A stretch of DNA of 64,000 bases from a virus, in IMG/VR virus record IMGVR_UViG_3300033571_022960, positions 69,436 through 133,435 of that record, one strand, 5' to 3'. The position numbers were made by a program, and so were the translations under genes. The notes beneath the pieces were generated by a model. The model did no database searches, was not told the DNA's origin, and saw nothing but the letters and a program-made list of their open reading frames with translations. This document shows, in pieces, positions 3,462 to 61,316 of the stretch (the first letter of the stretch is position 1; the number at the start of each line of letters is the position of its first letter).

Positions 3462-4022
3462 ATGAAAATTGGGATTATTACTCAAAAGGAATTTAAATTA
3501 TTTAATGAATACCCTTTACTATTTGAATATGGTGAATCCGATTACAATTTAATAATTGGTTATAATCTGGCAAAAGAATTAAATAAAAACACCAGTTTTT
3601 TAAATAATAAAATAAATAATAATACTTACTGGGTTTGGAGTGATGAAGAAAAACCTACTGATTCAAAAAAATTAACAATTAATATAATAAAACTTATAAT
3701 TGAAGAAATTATTAAGAATACAGAATATAAGGTGGTTGACCCAATCATTAATAAAATAACCAAAGAAAGTATAAAAAATTATTTCGCAAATAAAAATATA
3801 AACTACTACACCAAAATTGATAGAATGTTATTTCTTTATTATGAAAAGGAAATATTTGGTTTTGATTTGGAAGTTTTTAAATGGATGGATTGGAATATAA
3901 AGGAATTAATTGATTTTAAACCGTTAAAACCTTTTTTAATTGATGATAAATATTTGGATTTATTTACTGAAAAAAATAAAAAATATATACCAATTTTCTA
4001 CAGTAGTTTAAATAGAAAATAA
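3462..4022 (+). CDS. Hypothetical protein
   Basis: 186-aa ORF; TATATTTC box 5 nt upstream of ATG. Confidence 0.7.
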   Translation: MKIGIITQKEFKLFNEYPLLFEYGESDYNLIIGYNLAKELNKNTSFLNNKINNNTYWVWSDEEKPTDSKKLTINIIKLIIEEIIKNTEYKVVDPIINKITKESIKNYFANKNINYYTKIDRMLFLYYEKEIFGFDLEVFKWMDWNIKELIDFKPLKPFLIDDKYLDLFTEKNKKYIPIFYSSLNRK

Positions 4023-4348
4023 TTACCTGTATATAAACCACTATAATACTCTTCTAAATAAAATTTTAAATTAGATGGAATATGTATTGAATATAGTCCT
4101 TTTCTAGCACCATTGCCAACATAACACATTTTATAAAATAAAATAACCCTATTTTTACTTTTTAAAATATTAAAATCTTTTTTATTAATTTTTATACTTA
4201 AACCCAAATGACATTGCCCAAAACATTCTATTTCTGGATAAACATTTAAATTTTCTTTAAATAAATCAATATCTAAAAAAGAGTTATTTACGTTAAAGAA
4301 ACCGTTATTTGATTTTTGTAGATTAGTTATTGTTTTTTGCAAGTTCAT
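3998..4348 (-). CDS. KTLxNL family member 1
   Basis: Starts MNLQKTITNLQKSNNGFFN. Confidence 0.75.
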   Translation of the reverse strand: MNLQKTITNLQKSNNGFFNVNNSFLDIDLFKENLNVYPEIECFGQCHLGLSIKINKKDFNILKSKNRVILFYKMCYVGNGARKGLYSIHIPSNLKFYLEEYYSGLYTGNYFLFKLL

Positions 4349-4676
4349 ATTCTCCGATAAAAAGTTGATAGGATAAATTCATAATACCTGTATTTAATTT
4401 ATTTTTAAAAAAATATAAAATTTCAGCATGTTGATTCACCCATCCTTCGGGTCTAATCACTTGTTCTACTTTTATTTGAATTTTATAACAACAAGAATTA
4501 CCATTATCTTCTAAATTATTCCTATTTATTAGAAATACATTATATTCTCTATGTCCGTTTTTATACTTATAAAGTAAATTAACTTTAAAAGTATCAAAAT
4601 TAACAAAAAAATTTTCCATATTAAAAAAACCTGTTTTTGATTTTTTTAAATTATTTAATGTTTTTTGTAAGTTCAT
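4323..4676 (-). CDS. KTLxNL family member 2
   Basis: Starts MNLQKTLNNLKKSKTGFFN; close paralog of 9437-9757. Confidence 0.75.
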   Translation of the reverse strand: MNLQKTLNNLKKSKTGFFNMENFFVNFDTFKVNLLYKYKNGHREYNVFLINRNNLEDNGNSCCYKIQIKVEQVIRPEGWVNQHAEILYFFKNKLNTGIMNLSYQLFIGEYELAKNNN

Positions 4677-4836
4677 TTATCAATTTTTTTGCAGATTCTT
4701 TAAACTCTTCTTCTGTATATTCAGATTTTGGATAATATTTCACAATAACACCATCACCCATTAAAAGAAAAGAATCTTTATTATTGATTCCTTTACCCTC
4801 TGATAGTTTATATATTCTGTTTATAGATTTTTTCAT
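4651..4836 (-). CDS. Hypothetical protein
   Basis: 61-aa ORF overlapping both neighbours in an operon-like chain. Confidence 0.55.
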   Translation of the reverse strand: MKKSINRIYKLSEGKGINNKDSFLLMGDGVIVKYYPKSEYTEEEFKESAKKLINELTKNIK

Positions 4837-5005
4837 GTAAATAATAATAAATTAAAACTGTAAGAATAATTGGATTTAAAAAACAAAATAATAAAATTCT
4901 AAAAGGTTCATTTTCTTTTATAGCATACTCAATAGTTGTAAAAAACACCACAAAAAATAAAATTGAATATAAAATAATTAAAAATGTTATTAAACTAATA
5001 AACAT
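4808..5005 (-). CDS. Small membrane protein
   Basis: Two hydrophobic stretches; first gene of the minus-strand chain. Confidence 0.55.
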   Translation of the reverse strand: MFISLITFLIILYSILFFVVFFTTIEYAIKENEPFRILLFCFLNPIILTVLIYYYLHEKIYKQNI

Positions 5006-5139
5006 GGATTTTTTTTTACTAATTTAATAATTTTTTTTTAAAAAATCAAATTTTTATTAGAAAACAAAATATGATATATTTATTAAATAAAAATAGTACT
5101 ATTTAGTACCTTAATAAAAAAAGAAAAAAATAAGTAAAT

Positions 5140-5643
5140 ATGGCAAATTTAATAAATCCAATGCCAGGTAGTTTTGGAACTGCTAGTTTTGAACCGTTGA
5201 GGAAGAATAGATTCTTCTTGAGATTTGATTCTGCTCTTGGTATTGCAGAATGGTATGTTTCTACTGCTGAAAGACCTAAATTAAAGATAGATGAAACTGA
5301 AATTCAATACCTGAATGGTTCTACTTGGGTTGCAGGTAGGGCAGTCTGGGAGCCTATTACTGTTGTATTAAGAGACCCGATTGGTCCTAGTGCTACTCAA
5401 GCAACAATAGAGTGGGTTCGTTTGTGCTACGAAAGTGTAACAAATCGAAGCGGTTACGCAACTGGTTACAAGCGTAATGTTGATTTAGAAATGTTAGACC
5501 CAACAGGAGTACCAGTACAAAGATGGGTTTTACAAGGTACCTGGATTTCAAACGCAGATTATGGTAATTTAGATTACTCAAGTAGCGATATTGCTGATAT
5601 AACTCTAAATTTGCGTTTTGACCGAGCAATTAACGTTTTTTAA
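5140..5643 (+). CDS. Tail tube protein (T4 gp19-like)
   Basis: FEPLRKNRF...RPKL...GRAVWEPITVVLRDPIGPS..QA..EW...YKRNVDLEMLDPTG..VQRWVLQGTW...LDYSSSD pattern; late motif 5076-5083; terminator after. Confidence 0.85.
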   Translation: MANLINPMPGSFGTASFEPLRKNRFFLRFDSALGIAEWYVSTAERPKLKIDETEIQYLNGSTWVAGRAVWEPITVVLRDPIGPSATQATIEWVRLCYESVTNRSGYATGYKRNVDLEMLDPTGVPVQRWVLQGTWISNADYGNLDYSSSDIADITLNLRFDRAINVF

Positions 5644-5661
5644 TTTTTTATCAATATATTT

Positions 5662-5693
5662 AAAACCCATGCAAAGTTTGCATGGGTTTTTTT
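5662..5693 (+). terminator. Intrinsic terminator
   Basis: AAAACCCATGCAAA-G-TTTGCATGGGTTTT followed by a T run. Confidence 0.85.
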
Positions 5694-5781
5694 ATTTACT
5701 TTATATTAAAAATTCTTAAATTTAATTATGATTCAATGTAATGAATGTGTTAAAGAATTCAAAAACTAACAAAAATAATAT

Positions 5782-6789
5782 ATGCAAACTAATCAAACTA
5801 ATCCTATAATGCCCTTTTTAGAAGAAGAATTCAAATCCTTCAACATAGAACCCTTTACAGAAGTAGAATTCAAACCAGATGAATATATTAAAGAAATAGA
5901 ACAACAATTTCGTGATGGAATGACATGGGAAAATTATAATAAATTGTGGAAATTAATTTTTATTTTACCAAAAGAAACCTTCAATTTCAAAGATAATTTT
6001 TATAGAAGTTTAAAACAATATTTTTCAATAAATAATCTTTATCCAATATATATTGATGAAACAATAGAATACCCAGAAAATTTCCATTCAACTTGTTACC
6101 AGTATAAAACAAGATTTCAATCACAATATAAAGAAAAAAATATAATTGATTTTAATCCAGATAATGCAAATCTGAATAATACAATAATAAGGGAAATTTC
6201 TAAAAAAGAATGTACAAAGGTTGTTGAAAAATATGAATGGTTGGGTAAAATGAGTGGGTTTTCAAAATACCATTTTGGAATATATTTTTTAATTGATGGA
6301 AAAGAATATCTTGGTGGGGTTCTTGCATTTCAAAATGACTATGGTGAAAATACTGATGTATGGAAAAAGTATGACTTTAAAGGTGATATGATTTTATTAA
6401 GTAGAGGAGTTTGTTTATGGTGGACACCAAAGAATACTGCATCTTATTTTATATCGAAAACTTATAAATGGTTTTTGGATAACACAAATTATAGAATTTT
6501 AACTGCAACTACTGATTCAAGTGCAGGTGAAAGTGGGGTAATTTATTCTGCATTAAATTGGTTGGGTCTTGATATGAATAAACAAAAAACAAGAACTTCT
6601 GTAATAATTGATGGTAAAGAATATTCTGGTCGTTATATGAGAAAAAAATATGGAACAATGAAGGAAAGTATTATAAAGGAAAAATTTCCTAATGCAAGAT
6701 TTGTAAAAAGTCCAAGAAAAATTAGATATTTTTATTTTATTGGTAAAGATAAAAAGTATAATAAAATGAAGTTATTAAGTTATTCGTAA
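5782..6789 (+). CDS. Mom-like GNAT-fold protein (putative DNA modification acetyltransferase)
   Basis: C-terminal half: YHFGIYF..GGVLAF..LLSRGVC..KNTASYFISK..TTDSSAGESGVIYSALNW, matching the Mu Mom family pattern as recalled. Confidence 0.6.
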   Translation: MQTNQTNPIMPFLEEEFKSFNIEPFTEVEFKPDEYIKEIEQQFRDGMTWENYNKLWKLIFILPKETFNFKDNFYRSLKQYFSINNLYPIYIDETIEYPENFHSTCYQYKTRFQSQYKEKNIIDFNPDNANLNNTIIREISKKECTKVVEKYEWLGKMSGFSKYHFGIYFLIDGKEYLGGVLAFQNDYGENTDVWKKYDFKGDMILLSRGVCLWWTPKNTASYFISKTYKWFLDNTNYRILTATTDSSAGESGVIYSALNWLGLDMNKQKTRTSVIIDGKEYSGRYMRKKYGTMKESIIKEKFPNARFVKSPRKIRYFYFIGKDKKYNKMKLLSYS

Positions 6790-7070
6790 TATAAACAATA
6801 ATCTAATAAAGAATCATCTGATAAAAGAATGTTTTTAAAACAATAAACATCACTAAAAAAATCTATTTCTATAATCAGATTAAGTTGGTTATGTTTAAAA
6901 CCTGCACTGTTAATAAAAAATTCTTCTCTAAGTTCAAATGAATCATAATATTTTAAAACTGTATCATTCCTTAATAAATCAAAATTAATCCATATTCTAC
7001 CTTTATTTTGCAAATTAAAGAAAAAATTATGTGATTTCTTTAAATTTATTAATGTTTTTTGTAACTTCAT
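6780..7070 (-). CDS. KTLxNL family member 3
   Basis: Starts MKLQKTLINLKKSHNFFFN. Confidence 0.75.
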   Translation of the reverse strand: MKLQKTLINLKKSHNFFFNLQNKGRIWINFDLLRNDTVLKYYDSFELREEFFINSAGFKHNQLNLIIEIDFFSDVYCFKNILLSDDSLLDYCLYYE

Positions 7071-18482: not shown

Positions 18483-19027
18483 TAATTAGTTTAGGTCACA
18501 GAAGGAGAGTTGGTAAAAATGAAGGTGCAAACTTTCTTTTACACTATATTAATGAACAATATAAAGGTACTGTTGAAATAATTTCTTTTGCAGATAAAGT
18601 TAAGGATATGTCATTTGATTTATATGGTCATTATGGATTAAAAGAAAAAGAATTCTATGAGAAAAATCCACAATTTCGTGAACAACCTTTGCCAATAATA
18701 AACAAATCCCCAAGAGAAATTTGGATTGAATTCGGAAACAAAAATCGTGAAATTCATTCAAATGTGTGGGTTGATTGGGTAAAAAATAAAATCCCTAATT
18801 ATGATAATGTTATTATTCCTGATTTAAGGTTTGAAAATGAGGGTAATATGATTCATGAAATGGGTGGTGTTTGTGTACGTATTGATAATCCAAGAATTCC
18901 ACATTCAAATGATGTATCTGATTGTGCATTGGAAAATTGGAATGGGTGGGATTTTATTATTGACAATAATGGAACATTGGAAGAATTTTATCAGAAATTA
19001 ATTTATGTTTATAAAAAATTGAAGTGA
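18479..19027 (+). CDS. Deoxynucleoside monophosphate kinase
   Basis: LGHRRRVGK P-loop variant, SFADKVK, IPDLRFENE motifs of phage dNMP kinases. Confidence 0.8.
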   Translation: MIISLGHRRRVGKNEGANFLLHYINEQYKGTVEIISFADKVKDMSFDLYGHYGLKEKEFYEKNPQFREQPLPIINKSPREIWIEFGNKNREIHSNVWVDWVKNKIPNYDNVIIPDLRFENEGNMIHEMGGVCVRIDNPRIPHSNDVSDCALENWNGWDFIIDNNGTLEEFYQKLIYVYKKLK

Positions 19028-20184
19028 TGAAAATTAATATAAATAATTTAAAAATAACACCAAAAAATTTAGTAAATAAATTTCAATTATCGGTTTTTAA
19101 TCCTGATGATGAGATTTTAGAATGGGTAAAATATCACAATTTTCAGAATAATTCTGATAAAGGGTTTTTAAATATTGAAATAAATAAACCTTTAGAAGAA
19201 TTATTTTTAGAATTACCACATTTTAGTTATATTGATGGTTTTTCACCAAATCTCAATAAAAAATTACATATAGGACATTTTTCCAATTTTGTTATTGCAA
19301 AAAGTTTTGTTAATTTAGATATTGCAGAAAATCTAATTTCTATTTATGGTGATACATTAGAAGGATTATCAAAAGAAGAATCTTTAGTAAATTTAAGAAA
19401 ATATCAAGAACTTTTTAATTTTAAACCTCAAAAAGAATTTTTTGCATCAGAAATGAATTATTCTGATTTATTAAAAGAAGGTGATGGTGATTATAAAGGT
19501 TGTAAAATATTTGATATTGATGGAGAAAAAATTGTTGGTATAAAAAGTAATGGTAATTCTTCTTATTTTTATCAAGATGTTGCACTTGCAAGTATTCTGA
19601 ATAAACCAACCATTTATTTAACTGGTCATGAACAAACTAATCATTTTAATTCATTAAAAAAATTATTTCCATATATTCATCATATTGGTTTAGGTTTAGT
19701 TAAAGTATCAGGTAAAAAAATGAGTTCTCGTGAGGGTAATGTTTTATTAATGGAAGAAATTTTAGATATTATTTATAATGAATTTAATGATTATGAATTA
19801 ACTTATAATATATTTGCAGGTAACATATTAAAATCAAATCCAGAATCTGATAAAAACATTGATTTAAATTTATTGTCAAATCCAAAAAATAGTTTAGGTT
19901 TATATATTTCTTATACAACTGCACGTCTAATATCCGCTGGTTGTGATTTAAATTATAATTTAAATGATGAAGAATTGGAATTTTTATTATATAAATCAAA
20001 ATTTAATTTAAAACCAAATATACTTTTTAATGGTTTGGTTGATTATTGTAAAATGGTTAATTTAAAATATTCTGAATTAAAAATAAAGGATAATCCTGAT
20101 AATAAAAAATTATTTGAAAATTATTTGGGTAATATAAATTATTGTTTACAAATATTAGGTTTATTTTTGATTAAAAAAGTATGA
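19024..20184 (+). CDS. argS: Arginyl-tRNA synthetase-like protein (truncated)
   Basis: SPNLNKKLHIGH, YFYQDVA, GHEQTNHF, KKMSSREGN; only 386 aa. Confidence 0.75.
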   Translation: MMKININNLKITPKNLVNKFQLSVFNPDDEILEWVKYHNFQNNSDKGFLNIEINKPLEELFLELPHFSYIDGFSPNLNKKLHIGHFSNFVIAKSFVNLDIAENLISIYGDTLEGLSKEESLVNLRKYQELFNFKPQKEFFASEMNYSDLLKEGDGDYKGCKIFDIDGEKIVGIKSNGNSSYFYQDVALASILNKPTIYLTGHEQTNHFNSLKKLFPYIHHIGLGLVKVSGKKMSSREGNVLLMEEILDIIYNEFNDYELTYNIFAGNILKSNPESDKNIDLNLLSNPKNSLGLYISYTTARLISAGCDLNYNLNDEELEFLLYKSKFNLKPNILFNGLVDYCKMVNLKYSELKIKDNPDNKKLFENYLGNINYCLQILGLFLIKKV

Positions 20185-49766: not shown

Positions 49767-49831
49767 TTTGTTTTGTTACCACAAAGATATAAAACCAAAA
49801 CCGAATTTCCAAATAAGTTCGCATTATCTAA

Positions 49832-49861
49832 ATGTTAAGAATTTTATTTTTTTCTTAACAT
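49832..49861. promoter_or_regulatory. Palindromic operator-like site
   Basis: ATGTTAAGAA-N10-TTCTTAACAT. Confidence 0.55.
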
Positions 49862-49994
49862 AGAATTAACACAAAAAATTTGGTGGTATCATCACATTTT
49901 TGTATCTTTACAGTAGTGATTGAATGATGTGGATTCAATGACCTGTACGATGAAAATCTGACCGAGTATACTCCAACCTGCGCATTACTGTAAG

Positions 49995-50015
49995 TTATCC
50001 ACACAATGTTGATAA
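49995..50015. promoter_or_regulatory. Inverted DnaA-box pair
   Basis: TTATCCACA-N3-TGTTGATAA. Confidence 0.6.
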
Positions 50016-50248
50016 CTCGATTTGGAAAATTCAGATTTTTTTATTAATGAAACTCTGCTCACTTTTTTAAACAATTTTTTGTATTTTCGTATCCTGATGA
50101 AAAACTAAAAATTAAACCTTTACAAATATATTTTATTTATAATACATCAAAAAATGTATTGTGGGAGTATTCTATGTGTTTTAAAAAATATATGATATAA
50201 TTCTAATATATCGTATCCAATATATCATTTTTTCCATTCCATGCACAT

Positions 50249-50284
50249 AAAAAAATCCCATCAGAATACTCCAATGGGATTTTT
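50249..50284 (-). terminator. Intrinsic terminator
   Basis: AAAAATCCCAT-N12-ATGGGATTTTT with a longer U tract on the minus strand. Confidence 0.7.
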
Positions 50285-50600
50285 GTGGTTGATTGGGTGA
50301 ACTCAAACCCTTGTACTTCGGAAGAATTTCACCACCACTTTAGTTCCGTTTAACAGTTAATACTGCACGGATTGGTTAAATTTCCCACACCTTAAAATTG
50401 GCGGGGTTAAGTATCCAGATGATTGTTAGGTTGTTTACCATCTGGACCGAGCACCTGAACCTTTTGCGTGTTTACCTAACAACGTTAGTCAAGGTTCGGT
50501 TTGATACGGTCTCACATTTTTTGCGACCGATTAGTTTAATTAAATTCTTTTCATAGTTTTTAGGGTTTGGATTGTTAAAAAAAACGTTAATCATTTAATG
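50250..50600 (-). ncRNA. Candidate structured non-coding RNA (~350 nt)
   Basis: Promoter box 50606-50613, terminator 50249-50284, four or more GC-containing stems, no long ORF. Confidence 0.5.
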
Positions 50601-50848
50601 GAATACAAAGATAAACAATTTTTTCGGTATTTCTAATGCAATTTTCTTTATACCCCCCCCTAAAATCAGTTTTTCTCTTTGGATACCCCCTGGGGATACC
50701 ATGCAAAACTGAAATATTGATTTAAACCATATTTTAAAGAACTTTTATATTAAAGTGATATATTCACCTTATTTTAACAAAATCTCTTAAAATAACCCCA
50801 TTTCTGATTGAAATTTGATTATTCCCATACCCCCTTACCATTCGGAGG

Positions 50849-51052
50849 TTATTTGGATAATAATTTACTTAACATTACTGGTAATAATATTAAATAACCT
50901 AATGCAGAACCCAAAATTGTACCATAAATTTCAACTGAAACAAATAATGGTAACATTAGAATAATCCAAATCAAGAAACCAAAAATAGGTTTTTCTTGAT
51001 TAAGTCTATAATACCAAGACCAAAATCTTTTTTGTAGTTCAATTATTTTCAT
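50849..51052 (-). CDS. Small membrane protein
   Basis: Two hydrophobic segments. Confidence 0.55.
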   Translation of the reverse strand: MKIIELQKRFWSWYYRLNQEKPIFGFLIWIILMLPLFVSVEIYGTILGSALGYLILLPVMLSKLLSK

Positions 51053-52157
51053 AAAACAAATTTACAAAAAAAGAAATTAAAAATATAATGCAAAATACAT
51101 TAACCCCCAGATTTATCCACATATTATTTTCCATTGATGAAATTATTATGTATAATACACCATGATAAAGTGAATCCAATTCCTTTACACCAAAGGATTG
51201 TTTATTCAACCAATGAAGAAAATGAATCATTTCTTTCTTTAATAAAGATTTTATAGAATAACCATTGAATAAATAAAAACCCTGATACTGCAATTATTGG
51301 TGTCATACAACAAAGATAATAAAAAATTTCCTTAACTTTTTGGCAATAAAAATTCCACCAAAATACTCACAATTTTTTTTGAGCATAGTGGTAGTTCCGA
51401 TAACTTGACGTAGAATGTAGTATTTTCAATGGTTTCAGACGATTTGTTTCGATTTTGACCAAGAACACCATCCGATGTATGCAATCTTAAAAGTTCTGGG
51501 AACTTAAAAATCTACTTTAGAATTATCTTACTTTCCAAAGGAATTGTTTTAATCGGTATTCTTAACCGTTAGAGTTATTATGTTTATGCAAAACTCTTAA
51601 AACCATAACCAAACCCCTTATTTGGATTTTCCTTTTACAATGAAGGATAACATTGATTTTATTAGTGTTACAGTAAAAATCAAAATCTGCACTGAACCTT
51701 ATAATTCAGATTAACCTTATTTTTCGGGAGGTTTCTTAACCTAAGTGTGTTCGTAATTAACCCAATAAAACACACAACAAAGGGATAAGATTCAAAGTGT
51801 TCTTTTAGTTCTTATGGACATCCGTTGGAATTTATTAGACCTTTTCTTTACGGTAAATAATTTGTCAAATCTCCCCCAACAATAAATAAACATATCACCT
51901 GATACTCGTTTTTTTATCTTATAAGGAATAAGATTCAAAATATAAATATATTCATTTTGCATTTTTTTATTATGAAAAAAACTGTATTCTTAATTTTTGT
52001 GGTTTACTTCTCAATAATGGTTTTAATATTTGAATCTTTGAAGTAGATTGTGCAATACCTGAATTTTTAACGGAAATGGGGTTAATTTGAATTATTATTG
52101 ATGTGCAAGGTGTTTATATTAAACATTGATAAAAATGTCCCAGAATTGATTTAAAAC

Positions 52158-52190
52158 AAAAAATCCCCATATCTTTGAAAATATGAGGAT
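52158..52190 (-). terminator. Intrinsic terminator-like hairpin
   Basis: ATCCCCATAT-N8-ATATGAGGAT with a U tract on the minus strand. Confidence 0.55.
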
Positions 52191-52372
52191 AAATGTAAAT
52201 GCAGTACTGTGTGTACAGGCACTCTACATTGTTCAAACTAAAATTTTAATCAATCCCCTGTTTAACCAACGGTAATTAATTAATGAAATTAAATTGGACT
52301 ACCCAAAGTCATTCAACTCCAACCTACAACACGTAGTCGTGTTCTGGGTGAAATTCTTTGGGTAGTGGATTT

Positions 52373-52783
52373 TTATTGATTGATTAATGATGCAATCAAC
52401 TTTGTTTTTTCTTTAATTGATAATTTTTTGTTTTCCAAAGTTTTTAATGTTGTATGAACTTTATATTCATTTTCATCAAATACTTCTGAACCAGATTCTT
52501 CAAGATATTGAAGTTTATTTTGCAATTCAGTTCTTGAATCAACAAAGTTTTTTTCCAATTCTAAAAGTTCTTTTGTTATTTCTTCTTTTGTTTCTGATAT
52601 TTCTTTTACATTAATAGCATATACACCTGAAAGTATATGACCATTAGAAAACTCAACATCAAAGTTATTTTTAGTTCTAAAATAAATAATTTTACACTTT
52701 TGACCATCATATTTAGGATAATGAAGTCCATTGGAATTTGAAACAAATTTGTAGGTTTGACCTAATTTTACTTTTGTTGACAT
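52373..52783 (-). CDS. Hypothetical protein (start corrected to ATG52783)
   Basis: MSTKVKLGQTYKF...; the track's N-terminal extension runs through the tRNA. Confidence 0.75.
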   Translation of the reverse strand: MSTKVKLGQTYKFVSNSNGLHYPKYDGQKCKIIYFRTKNNFDVEFSNGHILSGVYAINVKEISETKEEITKELLELEKNFVDSRTELQNKLQYLEESGSEVFDENEYKVHTTLKTLENKKLSIKEKTKLIASLINQ

Positions 52784-52806
52784 ATATTTGGTTTTGATTT
52801 TCTTAG

Positions 52807-52880
<74 letters not shown>

Positions 52881-52886
52881 ATAAAT

Positions 52887-52998
52887 TGGTACCCCAGAGA
52901 AAAAATCGAATTTCTATCCATCTCGTGAAAGATGTGTCCTACATTGTTGTTTCCAACAAAGATGGTTTTTAAACCAATGCCACTTAGACGACTGGGGC
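52887..52998 (-). ncRNA. tRNA-Glu(TTC)-derived RNA 1 with D-loop insertion; CCA encoded
   Basis: Acceptor GCCCCAG/CTGGGGT, D stem GTCT/GGAC, CTTTCAC, TTCGA loop; ~38-nt two-hairpin insert. Confidence 0.75.
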
Positions 52999-53034
52999 AA
53001 GAATTTTGATAGTTTTATCTATCATTTTTTTTTG

Positions 53035-53150
53035 TACCAAAGTGGGAAGTCGAATCCCAACCTATCTCGTGAAAGATATGTCCTGTTATAATTACTTTGC
53101 AGTAATCAGGGAACATTCCATTCAAGGAACTCCAATTAGACGACTTTGGC
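53035..53150 (-). ncRNA. tRNA-Glu(TTC)-derived RNA 2 with D-loop insertion
   Basis: Acceptor GCCAAAG/CTTTGGT, D stem GTCT/GGAC, T arm TGGGA-TTCGACT-TCCCA; ~45-nt two-hairpin insert. Confidence 0.75.
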
Positions 53151-53190: not shown

Positions 53191-53241
53191 AAAGAAAAAA
53201 CAAATGACGTATAATTTAATTGTTTCTAAAGGTTTCAAATA

Positions 53242-53253
53242 TTTTCAAAGAAC
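53242..53253 (-). promoter_or_regulatory. rrn-type boxA-like element
   Basis: GTTCTTTGAAAA about 25 nt downstream of the tRNA-operon promoter. Confidence 0.55.
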
Positions 53254-53278
53254 TTTTTTCTTCATCATTTCAACAAAA

Positions 53279-53317
53279 CAAAGATAAGAAATTATTTTCG
53301 ATTTGTCAAATGCAATT
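53279..53317 (-). promoter_or_regulatory. Bacteroidota-type promoter of the tRNA operon
   Basis: AATTGCA-TTTGACA-N17-TATCTTTG on the minus strand. Confidence 0.8.
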
Positions 53318-53541
53318 TTGATGTTCTTTGAAATTTATTGAAAATTAACCTATTATTCTCAACTTTTCTTTTTAAATACTTAGTTTTAATACAGGTATGG
53401 GTAATTGGTGGTCTATGATAGTTATGTTGAATAAATCAAGGTCAACAACCCATAATTTTCGGTTTCAACGTGTAAGATAATAACCTTTTCACGTATTTCA
53501 ATAAATTTCACCATTTAAGGTATCAAAGAACTTCAATAAAA

Positions 53542-53580
53542 CAAAGATAATAATTAAATTTTACTTTGTCAAATGCAATT
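53542..53580 (-). promoter_or_regulatory. Second, tandem Bacteroidota-type promoter
   Basis: AATTGCA-TTTGACA-N17-TATCTTTG; boxA-like GTTCTTTGATA at 53521-53531. Confidence 0.75.
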
Positions 53581-53830: not shown

Positions 53831-54382
53831 TTATAAACAATCAGAAAGAAATTTACCAATATAATTTTGTTTAATCAAATCATCACATTCAATATATAAT
53901 CCATTTGTTTCCCATTTTTCCAAATCATTCTTTGAATAGTTAATTGGGAAATAATCACAACTTGCCTTTGATTCCTCAATTAACCAAACACATTTTTTAC
54001 CTTTTTCAATTTGAACCGTATGCAATTCACATGCCTTCATTAGTACTGTTTCCCCAGTAATATGTTTTTTGTTTGAAATCATTTTTAAACCTTGTTCCCC
54101 CAAATATTCAAACCCACCTTTACCATTCAAAATATGACTATTCCAAAGAAATTTCTTAAATACTTCCCCATCATTATCTAATTCATAAAGTGGATTAAAT
54201 AATTCACCCTCCAAAACAGTAATTTTTATGTCAACATGATGTGGGTGTATTGCTATTTCAAAAGGTTTCCACAAATTATGATTATAATCTGCATAAAAAA
54301 TACGTTTGTATAATCCACTTTCCGAAAAAGATAGTGGAAAGGAATGTAATCCTATACAATGGCAATTAATCAAATTTTTCAT
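53831..54382 (-). CDS. Hypothetical protein, possibly cupin-like
   Basis: His-rich AIHPHH and LHTV motifs. Confidence 0.65.
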   Translation of the reverse strand: MKNLINCHCIGLHSFPLSFSESGLYKRIFYADYNHNLWKPFEIAIHPHHVDIKITVLEGELFNPLYELDNDGEVFKKFLWNSHILNGKGGFEYLGEQGLKMISNKKHITGETVLMKACELHTVQIEKGKKCVWLIEESKASCDYFPINYSKNDLEKWETNGLYIECDDLIKQNYIGKFLSDCL

Positions 54383-56053: not shown

Positions 56054-56608
56054 TTAAAATTCAAATAATTTCTCCAAATAATCAAACATTTCCTTATATT
56101 CATCTGAATAAAGAATTGGTTTAATTTTTTTGTGATATTCTTCCCTATATTTATCAAACATTAATGAATTGGTTAATAAGGAATGTTTTACATTCGCAAT
56201 TAAATCACAAAGTTTAACAAATACCGCAAGATTTAGTGTTTTTAATTCACCATACCATTTTTCAGATTTTCTTTCATCTCTGTTTCTTCCTTTATCTTCC
56301 GTACAAAGATATATTATCTCTGCAACTGTATCACCATACATTTTTTTAATATCATTATAGGTTAATCTACAATCCTCAATTGAATCATGACCGTATATGG
56401 CAATTAATACCAAATCACGCAATCTTGTCTTATCAAATGAATTGTCAGGTCTTGCCTTAACATCTGGAATTAAATGTTTAAATCTTTCGTATTGATGTTC
56501 AACCATTTCAAGGTGGAAAGAATATGGAAGATTTCCATATTTTTGATTGCATTCAACATCATGTAAATTAAAGAAAAATATTTTTGCTTCTGTAACTGTC
56601 ATAATCAT
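56054..56608 (-). CDS. HD-domain hydrolase, SpoT/Mesh1-like
   Basis: H..QKYG.LPY.FHL..V, GHDSIED, VKLCD.IAN. Confidence 0.8.
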   Translation of the reverse strand: MIMTVTEAKIFFFNLHDVECNQKYGNLPYSFHLEMVEHQYERFKHLIPDVKARPDNSFDKTRLRDLVLIAIYGHDSIEDCRLTYNDIKKMYGDTVAEIIYLCTEDKGRNRDERKSEKWYGELKTLNLAVFVKLCDLIANVKHSLLTNSLMFDKYREEYHKKIKPILYSDEYKEMFDYLEKLFEF

Positions 56609-58377: not shown

Positions 58378-59205
58378 TTAATGCAAATTAAAAACCTTTA
58401 TCTTTTCTCTTTTATCGGAGTATCTTGAATTTGTGGTAAAAATCATTTCAAAATGTTTTTCCAAATCATCATAACCATTTGAAAAAATTCCATGACTTAT
58501 TGCAAGATACAATTTACCATTAAATCCATTTTTTCTTAATTGTTCTGCAATATTAATAAACGTTTTGCCACCAAGACAAATATCGTCAACCAAGAGTAAA
58601 TCACAATCTTTTACAGGTGGAATTACTGTTACTATATTTCTTGTTTGTTCATCACGATACTTTGATGCAGAAACCACAGGAATAAATCCCAAATTTTCTG
58701 ATAGTTTGAAAATCTTTTTAAAAGAACCTGCATCACTTGATAATAATTTCAAATCTTTTCTTCCTATTATATTTACAACCCATTCAATAAAAGATTTATT
58801 ATCAATTCTTACACATTTATTTAATAATGCAGGTGCAACATCTGAATGTGAATCAAAAACAAAAAACTTTTTAACTTCCAAAGTGTTTAGTATTTTTGTT
58901 ATAGTTTTTAAGGAAAAACATTCACCCACACCAAAATCCCTATCTGCTTGTTGATAAGGAAAATATCTAATCATTACCTCAATTTTAACATCAAAATCCT
59001 TATTAATGGTATCAACCATCAACATCAACAATAAAAGGTCATCAGAACCCTTAAAATACCAATCTATCAGTATTATAGAATTGGGGTTACAAACAGATAA
59101 CTTTTCAATAACCGAATCATTTAATTTTAAATGTATTTCACCACCTGGAAAAATCCATGCATTATATTGATTGGTCTGCCTAACACCGTTAAGATTTATT
59201 ATCAT
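58378..59205 (-). CDS. prs: Ribose-phosphate pyrophosphokinase-like protein (Prs/Adps-like)
   Basis: FPGGEIH, YFPYQQADR, DSHS, SDAG, VDDICLGGKTF, SHGIFS. Confidence 0.85.
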   Translation of the reverse strand: MIINLNGVRQTNQYNAWIFPGGEIHLKLNDSVIEKLSVCNPNSIILIDWYFKGSDDLLLLMLMVDTINKDFDVKIEVMIRYFPYQQADRDFGVGECFSLKTITKILNTLEVKKFFVFDSHSDVAPALLNKCVRIDNKSFIEWVVNIIGRKDLKLLSSDAGSFKKIFKLSENLGFIPVVSASKYRDEQTRNIVTVIPPVKDCDLLLVDDICLGGKTFINIAEQLRKNGFNGKLYLAISHGIFSNGYDDLEKHFEMIFTTNSRYSDKREKIKVFNLH

Positions 59206-59420
59206 ATTAATTTTTTTAAATTTTCTAACTCTTCATTTGTTAATCTTTCCAAAGGAATTCTATTTGTTGCACCTAATGTTTTTAGATTTAAAACAACTCC
59301 ATAAGGAATAATAATATTATGTGAAACTATTAACCATTTAACTTTTCCTATTTCAATTACTTTTTCATAGGAATTTGTTATTTTTGGAATAATTTCTTCA
59401 ATTAATTCTGTTTTTGACAT
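59202..59420 (-). CDS. Hypothetical protein
   Basis: 72 aa between the nampt-like and prs-like genes. Confidence 0.6.
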   Translation of the reverse strand: MSKTELIEEIIPKITNSYEKVIEIGKVKWLIVSHNIIIPYGVVLNLKTLGATNRIPLERLTNEELENLKKLI

Positions 59421-60850
59421 AAACTATTTTTTACTCTTTCACGAATTTCATTAAATGAATATTCTTTAACAATTTTACCATTATAATAAACAGTTTCAAG
59501 CAAACCACCCCTTTCTTCTTCCCATGATACTTGGTCTTTTGTTATAAATTGATTATTTTCGTAATCCAATCTCATTAACCCCTTTAACGATTTTTTACCA
59601 GTATCAGTAATTGGGTCTTTCATAATTTCTATTGGTTGACCATTTACTTCAACATAAGTTGCCTTTAATGCGAAACCTAAAGTATCTCTTGAATGATTAC
59701 GCATAATACCACCAACCCCAATAACCAAATTTTCTGGTGAATATCCCATTTCAATTAATTTATTTAATGTTCTTTCATATCTTTCATAATACTGACCATC
59801 ACCATAAATTAAACCAACTTTATCATTTAAAACCTTTAAACCTTGTTTATTTATTGTATGACCAAAAACTTCATCCAACAATCTTATTGCACCCTTCCAT
59901 TCCAAAGAATCTTCTTCTGATTCAGGATTACCGCAAATTATATATTCAGGATTACCAGAATCAGGTCTAAAAACTACCTTACCTTCTCTTGATAAAATTT
60001 GTGGTTTTAATTTTGTTGCAAATTCTGTTAACACTTTATATACATTATATGTATCTGAAACTATTGACACAATACCATCAGGATAAAGTTTTAACATATT
60101 TTCAAAGGCAGCTAATTCATCTTCACGACCAAAACTACACATAACAGAATGTTCTGATGCAGGAACAGATTTCATTATATTATCATCTAAAGAACCATTA
60201 TAATAATCTAATATAAAAGGAATAGATGATACAGTATCACTACCATAAGAACTTAATAAAAATGCACTTCCAGAAATTGCAGCAGATTCTTCACTTGAAT
60301 CACTTCTATACCCAAAATCATGTACTGTATAATCTTTTTTCCAATGATTTTCTAAATCAACTAATTTAAACTTTTCTTCAACTAATTTTCTATATTTATA
60401 AACACAAGATGCAACTGTTGTTGGAAACCAAACTTTTAAAATTAAAGATTCAAAAAAACCTGGCAACCAATGAAAATCATCATGTGTTGATACTATTGTT
60501 TGTAATACTTGTTTAGTTGGTATTATTGTACCTTCTGGTACAGATTTTATATGTAAAGGAAAATAACCTAATTTTAATAAATCCATTAATTGTTTTCTAC
60601 TGTTATTTCCTTCTGAACCTAAGATATGTTTTTTATATCTAAGATGTTCATCAACGTTACTTTCAGTAATAAAACGAGAAAGATATTTTTTTAAAATACC
60701 TTGTTGACCATAATAAAGAACATCCTTAAAATGTTTATCTGAACGTGCAACCAAATGGTTATATACTTTATTACAACCAGGAACATATTGTTCCATGTGA
60801 CCCATTTTGTAAACATCAAGACCTAAAAGTGGATTTTTTTCTACTGACAT
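59402..60850 (-). CDS. nadV: Nicotinamide phosphoribosyltransferase-like protein (NadV/Namat-like; start corrected to ATG60850)
   Basis: LDVYKMGH, HDFGYR, VPASEHSV, VSDTY, VFRPDSG, IYGDG, GFALKAT. Confidence 0.9.
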   Translation of the reverse strand: MSVEKNPLLGLDVYKMGHMEQYVPGCNKVYNHLVARSDKHFKDVLYYGQQGILKKYLSRFITESNVDEHLRYKKHILGSEGNNSRKQLMDLLKLGYFPLHIKSVPEGTIIPTKQVLQTIVSTHDDFHWLPGFFESLILKVWFPTTVASCVYKYRKLVEEKFKLVDLENHWKKDYTVHDFGYRSDSSEESAAISGSAFLLSSYGSDTVSSIPFILDYYNGSLDDNIMKSVPASEHSVMCSFGREDELAAFENMLKLYPDGIVSIVSDTYNVYKVLTEFATKLKPQILSREGKVVFRPDSGNPEYIICGNPESEEDSLEWKGAIRLLDEVFGHTINKQGLKVLNDKVGLIYGDGQYYERYERTLNKLIEMGYSPENLVIGVGGIMRNHSRDTLGFALKATYVEVNGQPIEIMKDPITDTGKKSLKGLMRLDYENNQFITKDQVSWEEERGGLLETVYYNGKIVKEYSFNEIRERVKNSLCQKQN

Positions 60851-60854
60851 AATA

Positions 60855-61316
60855 TTAAAATTTAATTTTTGATTGTTTTTTATTAAAAATATTTTTTTCA
60901 ATTATTGATGAGCATTCAGGACCAATTCCATTTTCCAAACTTTCAGGATGTGTTAACTTTCTTCCACATCTTCCACAACGACCTTCGTGCATGAATTCCA
61001 ATTTAAGATTCTCAATATTATTCAACAAATACATAAAACCCAAAACAGAAGGTGAATTAGAACTTATTTTTGTTTTATTAGATTTTCCATGATAATATTC
61101 ACTATTTTTAACATAACCAATATAACTATAATCAGTTTCGTTATCTGTTCCTGTAAGTACTTTAACAAAGAAAATATCTTCTTTTTCTTTGTTTTTATTT
61201 GGATTATATACTTTATAAGTAAAATGTTTATTTGTGTTGGGATTCTTTAAAGTAAAAGTGGAATTCCCTGCGAATATAAAATTCTTAATATCAGATGGAT
61301 TGGTTATTTTATTCAT
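60855..61316 (-). CDS. Protein with C-terminal Zn ribbon (DUF6011-like; start corrected to ATG61316)
   Basis: GRCGRCGRKLTHPESLENGIGPEC. Confidence 0.75.
   Translation of the reverse strand: MNKITNPSDIKNFIFAGNSTFTLKNPNTNKHFTYKVYNPNKNKEKEDIFFVKVLTGTDNETDYSYIGYVKNSEYYHGKSNKTKISSNSPSVLGFMYLLNNIENLKLEFMHEGRCGRCGRKLTHPESLENGIGPECSSIIEKNIFNKKQSKIKF

Follow-up and report, generated by a model that had tools for sequence, protein, structure and literature searches.

Natural tRNAs almost always have four arms, and position 20/21 is the most tolerant and most variable spot of their D-loop. In Staphylococcus, a non-proteinogenic tRNA-Gly reportedly retains a tRNA body that is unfit for decoding and acts off the ribosome through a transferase. 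The mascRNA also has a tRNA body unfit for decoding and acts through a synthetase, GlnRS, which it binds (PMC9976931). Archaeal tRNA genes contain bulge-helix-bulge introns of 11-129 nt at position 20/21 (PMC4090602). The tRNA cluster of phage T4 includes the small stable species 1 and species 2 RNAs (rnaC and rnaD), the first of which has a T arm like that of a tRNA at its end. Other phage tRNAs, encoded in clusters and with a remodelled anticodon loop, have been connected with the evasion of tRNA-cutting defences; they still decode and keep the normal four arms (PMC10264068). A hairpin insertion in the D-loop is absent from a review of non-canonical natural tRNAs (PMC7609411) and was not found in our literature searches.

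Here we describe two tRNA-shaped genes, RNA A and RNA B, whose D-loops contain such an insertion. They were found in the final 64 kb of an IMG/VR virus record (IMGVR_UViG_3300033571_022960), and this stretch of 64,000 nt, here called the window, is the reference for all their coordinates. The record has a total of 133,435 bp, with ~25% GC and an estimated completeness of 41%. It encodes a Gp23-type major capsid protein, a T4-type prohead protease, a portal, a tail sheath, a DNA polymerase and a DnaB-type helicase, and is therefore taken to be part of the genome of a large T4-like myovirus. Other genes in the window include a 335-aa protein (5782-6786, plus strand) that contains a domain of the Mom family (PF25680, E 3.5e-20), a family known for DNA-adenine modification in phage Mu, an HD-type phosphohydrolase (56054-56608), and adjacent genes for a NAMPT (nicotinamide phosphoribosyltransferase) and a PRPP-synthetase-like protein (58378-60901, minus strand), which form a phage NAD salvage pair.

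The original prediction of two tRNA-shaped genes was confirmed, and A and B are structurally a new variant among the phage RNAs derived from tRNAs. They resemble species 1 and species 2 of phage T4 by context only, a capsid of the Gp23 type and a prohead protease of the T4 type being present in both phages; rnaC and rnaD have no sequence similarity to A and B and lack a Glu-type D arm, and a covariance model built from A, B and a relative (R1, see below) matched the T4 tRNA-Thr only, not rnaC or rnaD. By analogy with mascRNA and the Staphylococcus tRNA-Gly, A and B may work like a small class of off-ribosome tRNA look-alikes, although these two belong to other lineages and organisms and have no D-loop domain.

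Both genes are on the minus strand. RNA A (53035-53150) has 116 nt, from G1 at 53150 to A73 at 53035, and is followed by CA, while RNA B (52887-52998) has 109 nt, from G1 at 52998 to A73 at 52890, followed by an encoded CCA (52889-52887). The two RNAs were cut by hand into tRNA segments and folded with ViennaRNA. As had been predicted, they keep 7-bp acceptor stems of different sequence (GCCAAAG/CUUUGGU in A and GCCCCAG/CUGGGGU in B, 7/7 pairs each), and share the D stem GUCU/GGAC, the heptamer CUUUCAC and a T loop that begins with UUCGA. The acceptor stem starts with a G1.U72 wobble in both copies and is followed by the discriminator A73. The core consists of U8 and C9, a D-loop AAnUGG with G18G19, then the insert, A21 and A26, and the tertiary-core nucleotides U8, A14, G18G19, A21, U54-U55-C56 and A58 are all in place. 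The T stems are UGGGA/UCCCA in A and AGAAA/UUUCU in B. The T loop of B, overlooked in the original prediction, has 8 nt (UUCGAUUU, 52910-52903).

Compared with elongator tRNA-Glu (UUC/CUC, RF00005), A and B have the same four stems, U8, A14, G18G19, A21, UUCGA, U11-A24, U13.G22 and CUUUCAC, but differ in the 20/21 insert, a 6-nt anticodon loop, G1.U72, A53-U61 and a variable region of 3 nt. The pair G53-C61, here replaced in both copies, is nearly universal among tRNAs. The canonical D-loop of ~7-11 nt is exceeded by 39 or 47 nt, the loop UUCACG departs from the canonical anticodon arm of 5 bp with a 7-nt loop and U33, and the T arm departs from the 7-nt loop with G53-C61, by the A53-U61 pair in both RNAs and the 8-nt loop in B. 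Neither RNA was called by ARAGORN or by the Rfam tRNA model, the latter even at E<=10; when the insert was deleted in silico, ARAGORN called A as a tRNA whose anticodon has 2 nt, and B was still uncalled. Since four defining features fail, namely the size of the D-loop, the 7-nt loop of the anticodon arm, the G53-C61 pair and the score with Rfam, A and B are not filed here as tRNAs, though they plainly derive from one.

The anticodon arm is located at 53063-53078 in A and 52919-52934 in B. The predicted change of register was found in both copies: the stems UAUCU/AGAUA (A) and CAUCU/AGAUG (B) enclose a 6-nt loop, UUCACG, and the C-G to U-A change between them is compensatory. A run of 14 nt of this arm, AUCUUUCACGAGAU, is identical in A and B. 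In the minimum-energy fold (ViennaRNA) the arm is extended to 6 pairs capped by a UCAC tetraloop. The letters U-U-C-A are still inside the 6-nt loop of both copies. Because the re-registered stem of 5-6 bp leaves a loop of 6 or 4 nt, A and B would be unable to present a normal anticodon, and therefore would not decode.

A tRNA-Arg ancestry, considered on account of the letters ACG and of an ArgRS-like gene in the same phage, was rejected, as the corresponding register is unpaired and the D arm is of the Glu/Gln type. The ArgRS-like gene (19024-20181, plus strand) encodes a 386-aa stripped-down class I synthetase core, in which the motifs LHIGH and KMSSR are present. This protein matched TIGR00456 with E 1.9e-11 and a score far below the cut-off, and had no sequence match in the PDB. 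It has at least 599 relatives of ~390 aa, many of them on contigs of 100-680 kb.

The inserts were predicted after the D-loop GG with a length of ~38-45 nt; they are present at that site, between G19 and A21, but their actual lengths are 47 nt in A (53085-53131) and 39 nt in B (52941-52979). The two hairpins described for each of them were recovered with ViennaRNA. In A, hairpin 1 (53130-53115) is GUUCC-UUGAAU-GGAAU and hairpin 2 (53108-53089) is UGAUUACU-GCAA-AGUAAUUA; in B, hairpin 1 (52976-52963) is UGGUU-UAAA-AACCA and hairpin 2 (52959-52944) is UUGUUG-GAAA-CAACAA. Folded alone, the A insert forms both hairpins at -10.8 kcal/mol (z -3.1, equalled by 0 of 200 shuffles), and the B insert forms both at -8.8 kcal/mol (z -1.8). 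The sequence similarity between the two inserts is not above that of shuffles (z -0.2), their ends share no sequence, and neither insert is repeated elsewhere in the 133-kb record. Pairing of the insert loops with the anticodon loop was rejected, since the 4-nt matches are not conserved. A group I or group II intron or a ribozyme was also rejected, as the inserts have 39 and 47 nt against a core of ~200 nt or more, and had no Rfam match.

Further members were searched for in IMG/VR (five DNA patterns and three protein-based searches) and by pattern scans of metagenomes and of GTDB genomes. A single true relative was obtained from the pattern scans, a phage recovered three times (L021, L036 and L041, with 99.8-99.9% identity); the remaining pattern matches were either ordinary tRNAs or coincidental hits within coding DNA. 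No copies other than A and B turned up when the entire 133-kb record was scanned with a descriptor, and the GenBank phages contained no match to the A and B RNAs, to the locus of the relative or to the ORF-poor region described below. The covariance model R1, built from the three RNAs, added no further member in their own record, in the loci with the cupin gene (see below) or in five whole related records.

The relative comes from a phage of ~40% GC with a family-A DNA polymerase, unrelated to the phage of A and B. Its RNA shares with A and B the D arm, the 5' GCC, G1.U72, A73, the 14-mer GUCGUCUAAUUGGA, A21 and GGACA. It also has an insert at the same site, of 48 nt and with a sequence unrelated to the A and B inserts, which forms two hairpins in the fold of the whole RNA; folded alone, one long irregular hairpin is also possible. 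The anticodon arm is normal (ACCAU, a 7-nt loop UUCUCGG, and AUGGU), and with the insert removed in silico the RNA is called as tRNA-Glu(CUC) by ARAGORN. The presence of a normal 7-nt anticodon loop in the relative indicates that the insert itself does not imply the loss of decoding. The predicted tRNA-Glu origin is upheld by this RNA, which has the same body and insert site, and by the retention of U11-A24 and U13.G22 in A and B. That the inserts have the same shape was borne out insofar as two hairpins occur in the three RNAs, but these represent two lineages only and the isolated insert of the relative has an alternative fold. The conservation of insert shape is thus weakly sampled, because the architecture comes from two lineages.

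Whether the unusual features reflect selection or decay could be judged from the base pairs. Between A and B there are six different stem pairs: two acceptor-stem pairs, one pair of the anticodon stem and three of the T stem. In every case both partners have changed, and no pair is broken. When the relative is included, all 63 pair cells are standard, and of the 21 pairs, all kept in the three RNAs, 12 vary, 11 of these by double-sided changes. The D arm is invariant between A and B, while the acceptor stem, the T stem and the insert drift. The whole-RNA folds have z scores of -3.3 for A and -3.3 for B, with 0 of 200 dinucleotide shuffles as good. These data agree with the earlier argument for selection rather than decay, and A and B are almost certainly real, selected RNA genes. 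Their many non-canonical features and the failure of tRNA tools to call them could also be expected from decaying tRNA-Glu pseudogenes holding junk or mobile hairpin insertions. Such decay is at odds with the 63 standard pair cells and the six compensated pairs, with the recurrence of insert site and shape in an unrelated phage, with inserts that are unrepeated elsewhere in the record, and with the strong-looking tandem promoters that precede the genes, and we consider it most improbable. The 63/63 standard pairs and the tRNA-Glu(CUC) call of the relative give good support both to a descent from tRNA-Glu and to selection on the cloverleaf.

Read 5' to 3' on the minus strand, the locus consists of two promoter-like blocks, RNA A, a spacer of 36 nt, RNA B, a tRNA-Met, a 136-codon ORF and a terminator-like hairpin. 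The distal promoter-like site (53544-53572) is TTGACA, 17 nt and TATCTT(TG), and the proximal one (53281-53309) lies ~120 nt upstream of RNA A; both read TTGACA, a 17-nt gap and TATCTTTG. They are part of a ~50-nt block that is duplicated 263 nt apart, with no third copy in the 133-kb record. Each tandem copy is followed by GUUCUUUGA(A/U)A (within 53211-53580, minus strand). The A-B spacer (52999-53034) has a stretch rich in A and a small GAUAG...CUAUC hairpin. Six bases after RNA B starts an initiator-type tRNA-Met (CAU; 52806-52880), called by ARAGORN and scoring 63 bits with Rfam, which is the sole tRNA called by either tool in the entire record. In the Rfam alignment it has the bacterial initiator marks, namely a G1xA72 mismatch, A11-U24 and three G-C pairs adjoining the anticodon loop. 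The 136-codon ORF (52373-52783) starts 22 nt past the tRNA-Met and has no known family match. The first terminator-like hairpin with a T run (52155-52190, hairpin at 52190-52163) is 0.6 kb downstream of the RNA genes.

No promoter-like site was found between the RNA genes, and with tandem sites upstream and the first terminator-like site at 52190-52163, A, B and the initiator-type tRNA-Met probably share one transcript, as had been proposed. The host of the phage is probably a member of the Bacteroidota, because TAnnTTTG is found at the end of the promoter-like sites and the tRNA-Met shares 82-85% identity with the tRNA-Met of Bacteroides, Prevotella and crAss-type phages. The TATCTTTG of the promoter-like sites fits TAnnTTTG, the -7 motif of Bacteroidota promoters.

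Directly upstream of the RNA operon is a gene (53834-54382, minus strand) for a 183-aa cupin-fold metalloprotein (pLDDT 94) with the conserved motifs HPHHVD and CELHTV. This protein has 142 relatives of 57-88% identity in public assemblies and is widespread in phages; in the six IMG/VR loci with the cupin gene, there is no synteny with the A and B RNAs. A role as a tRNA enzyme was rejected, since its fold matches thiol/cysteine dioxygenase-type cupins only. One phage sharing the cupin gene (IMGVR_UViG_3300028841_000176, L052) has a tRNA cluster at 3690-7030 of that locus with over-long tRNAs: a Pro tRNA of 94 nt and a Gln tRNA of 85 nt, in which an additional arm, capped by GUAA, separates the anticodon arm from the T arm. 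At ~4640-4740 the same locus contains loose T-arm-plus-acceptor pieces, one of them ending in CCA.

Downstream of the operon, 2.6 kb of the minus strand (49767-52372) contain just two short ORFs, of 67 and 84 codons. Two strongly structured stretches were detected there and at its border, one at 52450-52110 (z down to -4.6), which ends at the terminator-like site 52190-52163, and another at 50550-50160 (z down to -6.1), which terminates in a hairpin with a T run near 50275-50240. Both are candidate phage ncRNAs and matched no Rfam family and no GenBank phage. Beside the A and B genes, the Rfam models revealed no GOLLD, ROOL or other family.

The original prediction had also considered that the insert might be a removable intervening sequence. 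Under this explanation the insert would be a protein-spliced intron at 20/21, with an endonuclease cutting its borders and an RtcB-type ligase joining the ends, to give a mature RNA of ~70 nt. Without its insert the relative is a flawless tRNA-Glu(CUC), and 2.7 kb downstream of its RNA lies a gene for an RtcB RNA ligase (L036, 8694-9932, plus strand; phrog_1075, E 7e-123), a hint in favour of splicing. RtcB is present in 420 of 50,697 GenBank phage records; however, its link to the insert is a single case, and phage RtcB is generally interpreted as a tRNA repair enzyme. The 384-aa and 293-aa proteins adjoining the RtcB gene of the relative matched no family.

Precedents exist in the archaeal introns, which interrupt tRNAs at exactly 20/21 and have lengths similar to these inserts (PMC4090602), and in the tRNAs of Lak megaphages, which carry introns with an unexplained mechanism, although in the anticodon loop (PMC6784885). 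In contrast to the archaeal case, no bulge-helix-bulge (a 4-bp central helix with flanking helices) was found in A or B, and the relative has only weak, G.U-rich candidates in another register. The insert ends lack a common sequence, and neither the PF01974 splicing endonuclease nor RtcB was detected in the 133-kb fragment (estimated completeness 41%). The host also looks bacterial, from the bacterial-type initiator tRNA and the Bacteroidota-like promoters. Furthermore, A and B would retain a 6-nt anticodon loop after splicing. We know of no protein cut-and-join splicing of this kind for tRNAs in bacteria or their phages. An intron is thus an unlikely explanation for the insert, and it is somewhat less likely again that tRNA-type genes of a bacterial virus are split at the archaeal 20/21 site and matured by an endonuclease and an RtcB-type ligase. 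On balance we lean towards an insert that is retained in the mature RNA.

The decoding capacity of A and B has to be weighed along with their possible partners. The identity set of GluRS comprises U11-A24, U13-G22:A46, U34, U35, C36, A37 and the absence of nucleotide 47, with U11-A24, U13.G22, U34, U35, C36 and A37 among the major determinants, and weak marks of the E. coli enzyme in the acceptor stem are G1-C72 and U2-A71 (PMC9976931). Relative to this set, A and B have U11-A24 and U13.G22, UUCA within the 6-nt loop and a 3-nt variable region, but their acceptor pairs G1.U72 and C2-G71 differ from the weak marks. They could in principle be working decoders, with an anticodon loop of 6 or 8 nt reading doublets or quadruplets, or with an opened loop reading GAA. 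The Glu(UUC) loop letters CUUUCAC are kept in both copies, opening of the last U-A pair would give an 8-nt loop, and the relative appears capable of decoding. Set against this, the stem register is held by the compensatory C-G to U-A change, and A53-U61, the 8-nt T loop of B and the 3-nt variable region are unlike elongator tRNAs. The ORF statistics showed no sign of an alternative genetic code or of programmed frameshifts, and so lend no support to the frameshifting role suggested in the original prediction. Odd decoding of this type is very unlikely, and A and B are probably non-decoding RNAs.

The best overall explanation, which in our judgement has about an even chance of being right, is that A and B are non-decoding mimics of tRNA-Glu with a built-in extra domain. 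In the mechanism proposed, the tandem promoters would drive transcription of both along with the phage initiator tRNA, and the two RNAs would be excised like tRNAs, given that an intact acceptor stem and elbow would be suitable for RNase P and for trimming of the 3' end or addition of CCA. They would adopt the usual L-shape, with the 39- or 47-nt insert leaving the D-loop at 20/21 as a two-hairpin domain that would project from the elbow and be kept in the mature RNA. The re-registered anticodon arm would prevent the presentation of an anticodon and hence decoding, and with a closed anticodon loop and an extra arm, A and B probably act outside normal codon reading. A partner may recognize the D-arm and anticodon-arm face of tRNA-Glu, since the Glu-type D arm and the 14-nt anticodon sequence are fixed while the rest drifts.

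The role favoured for these mimics is that of a highly expressed stand-in for tRNA-Glu, presented to a host factor aimed at it, for example an anticodon-nuclease-type defence; this preference is based on the strong-looking tandem promoters and the initiator tRNA alongside. A decoy or sponge of this sort, which resembles the anticodon-nuclease or GluRS decoys listed in the original prediction, is put forward tentatively, as a possibility drawn from the sequences. The next choice, a glutamate-chargeable carrier that would act off the ribosome, is slightly less probable. This analysis identified no bacterial nuclease with specificity for tRNA-Glu, and the 133-kb fragment, estimated to be 41% complete, contained no GluRS, RtcB or other obvious partner.

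A selected two-hairpin domain at 20/21 combined with a closed anticodon loop indicates that phages rebuild the tRNA scaffold for non-decoding work. If A and B are decoys or glutamate carriers, they would constitute a new RNA player in phage-host conflict, and position 20/21 would be a natural, tolerated insertion site for the engineering of tRNA scaffolds. If the insert is spliced instead, it would reveal a new RNA-processing route in bacteria, although the products here would still be non-decoding mimics of tRNA-Glu. Phage tRNA inventories are probably undercounted, because standard annotation tools miss genes of the A and B type.
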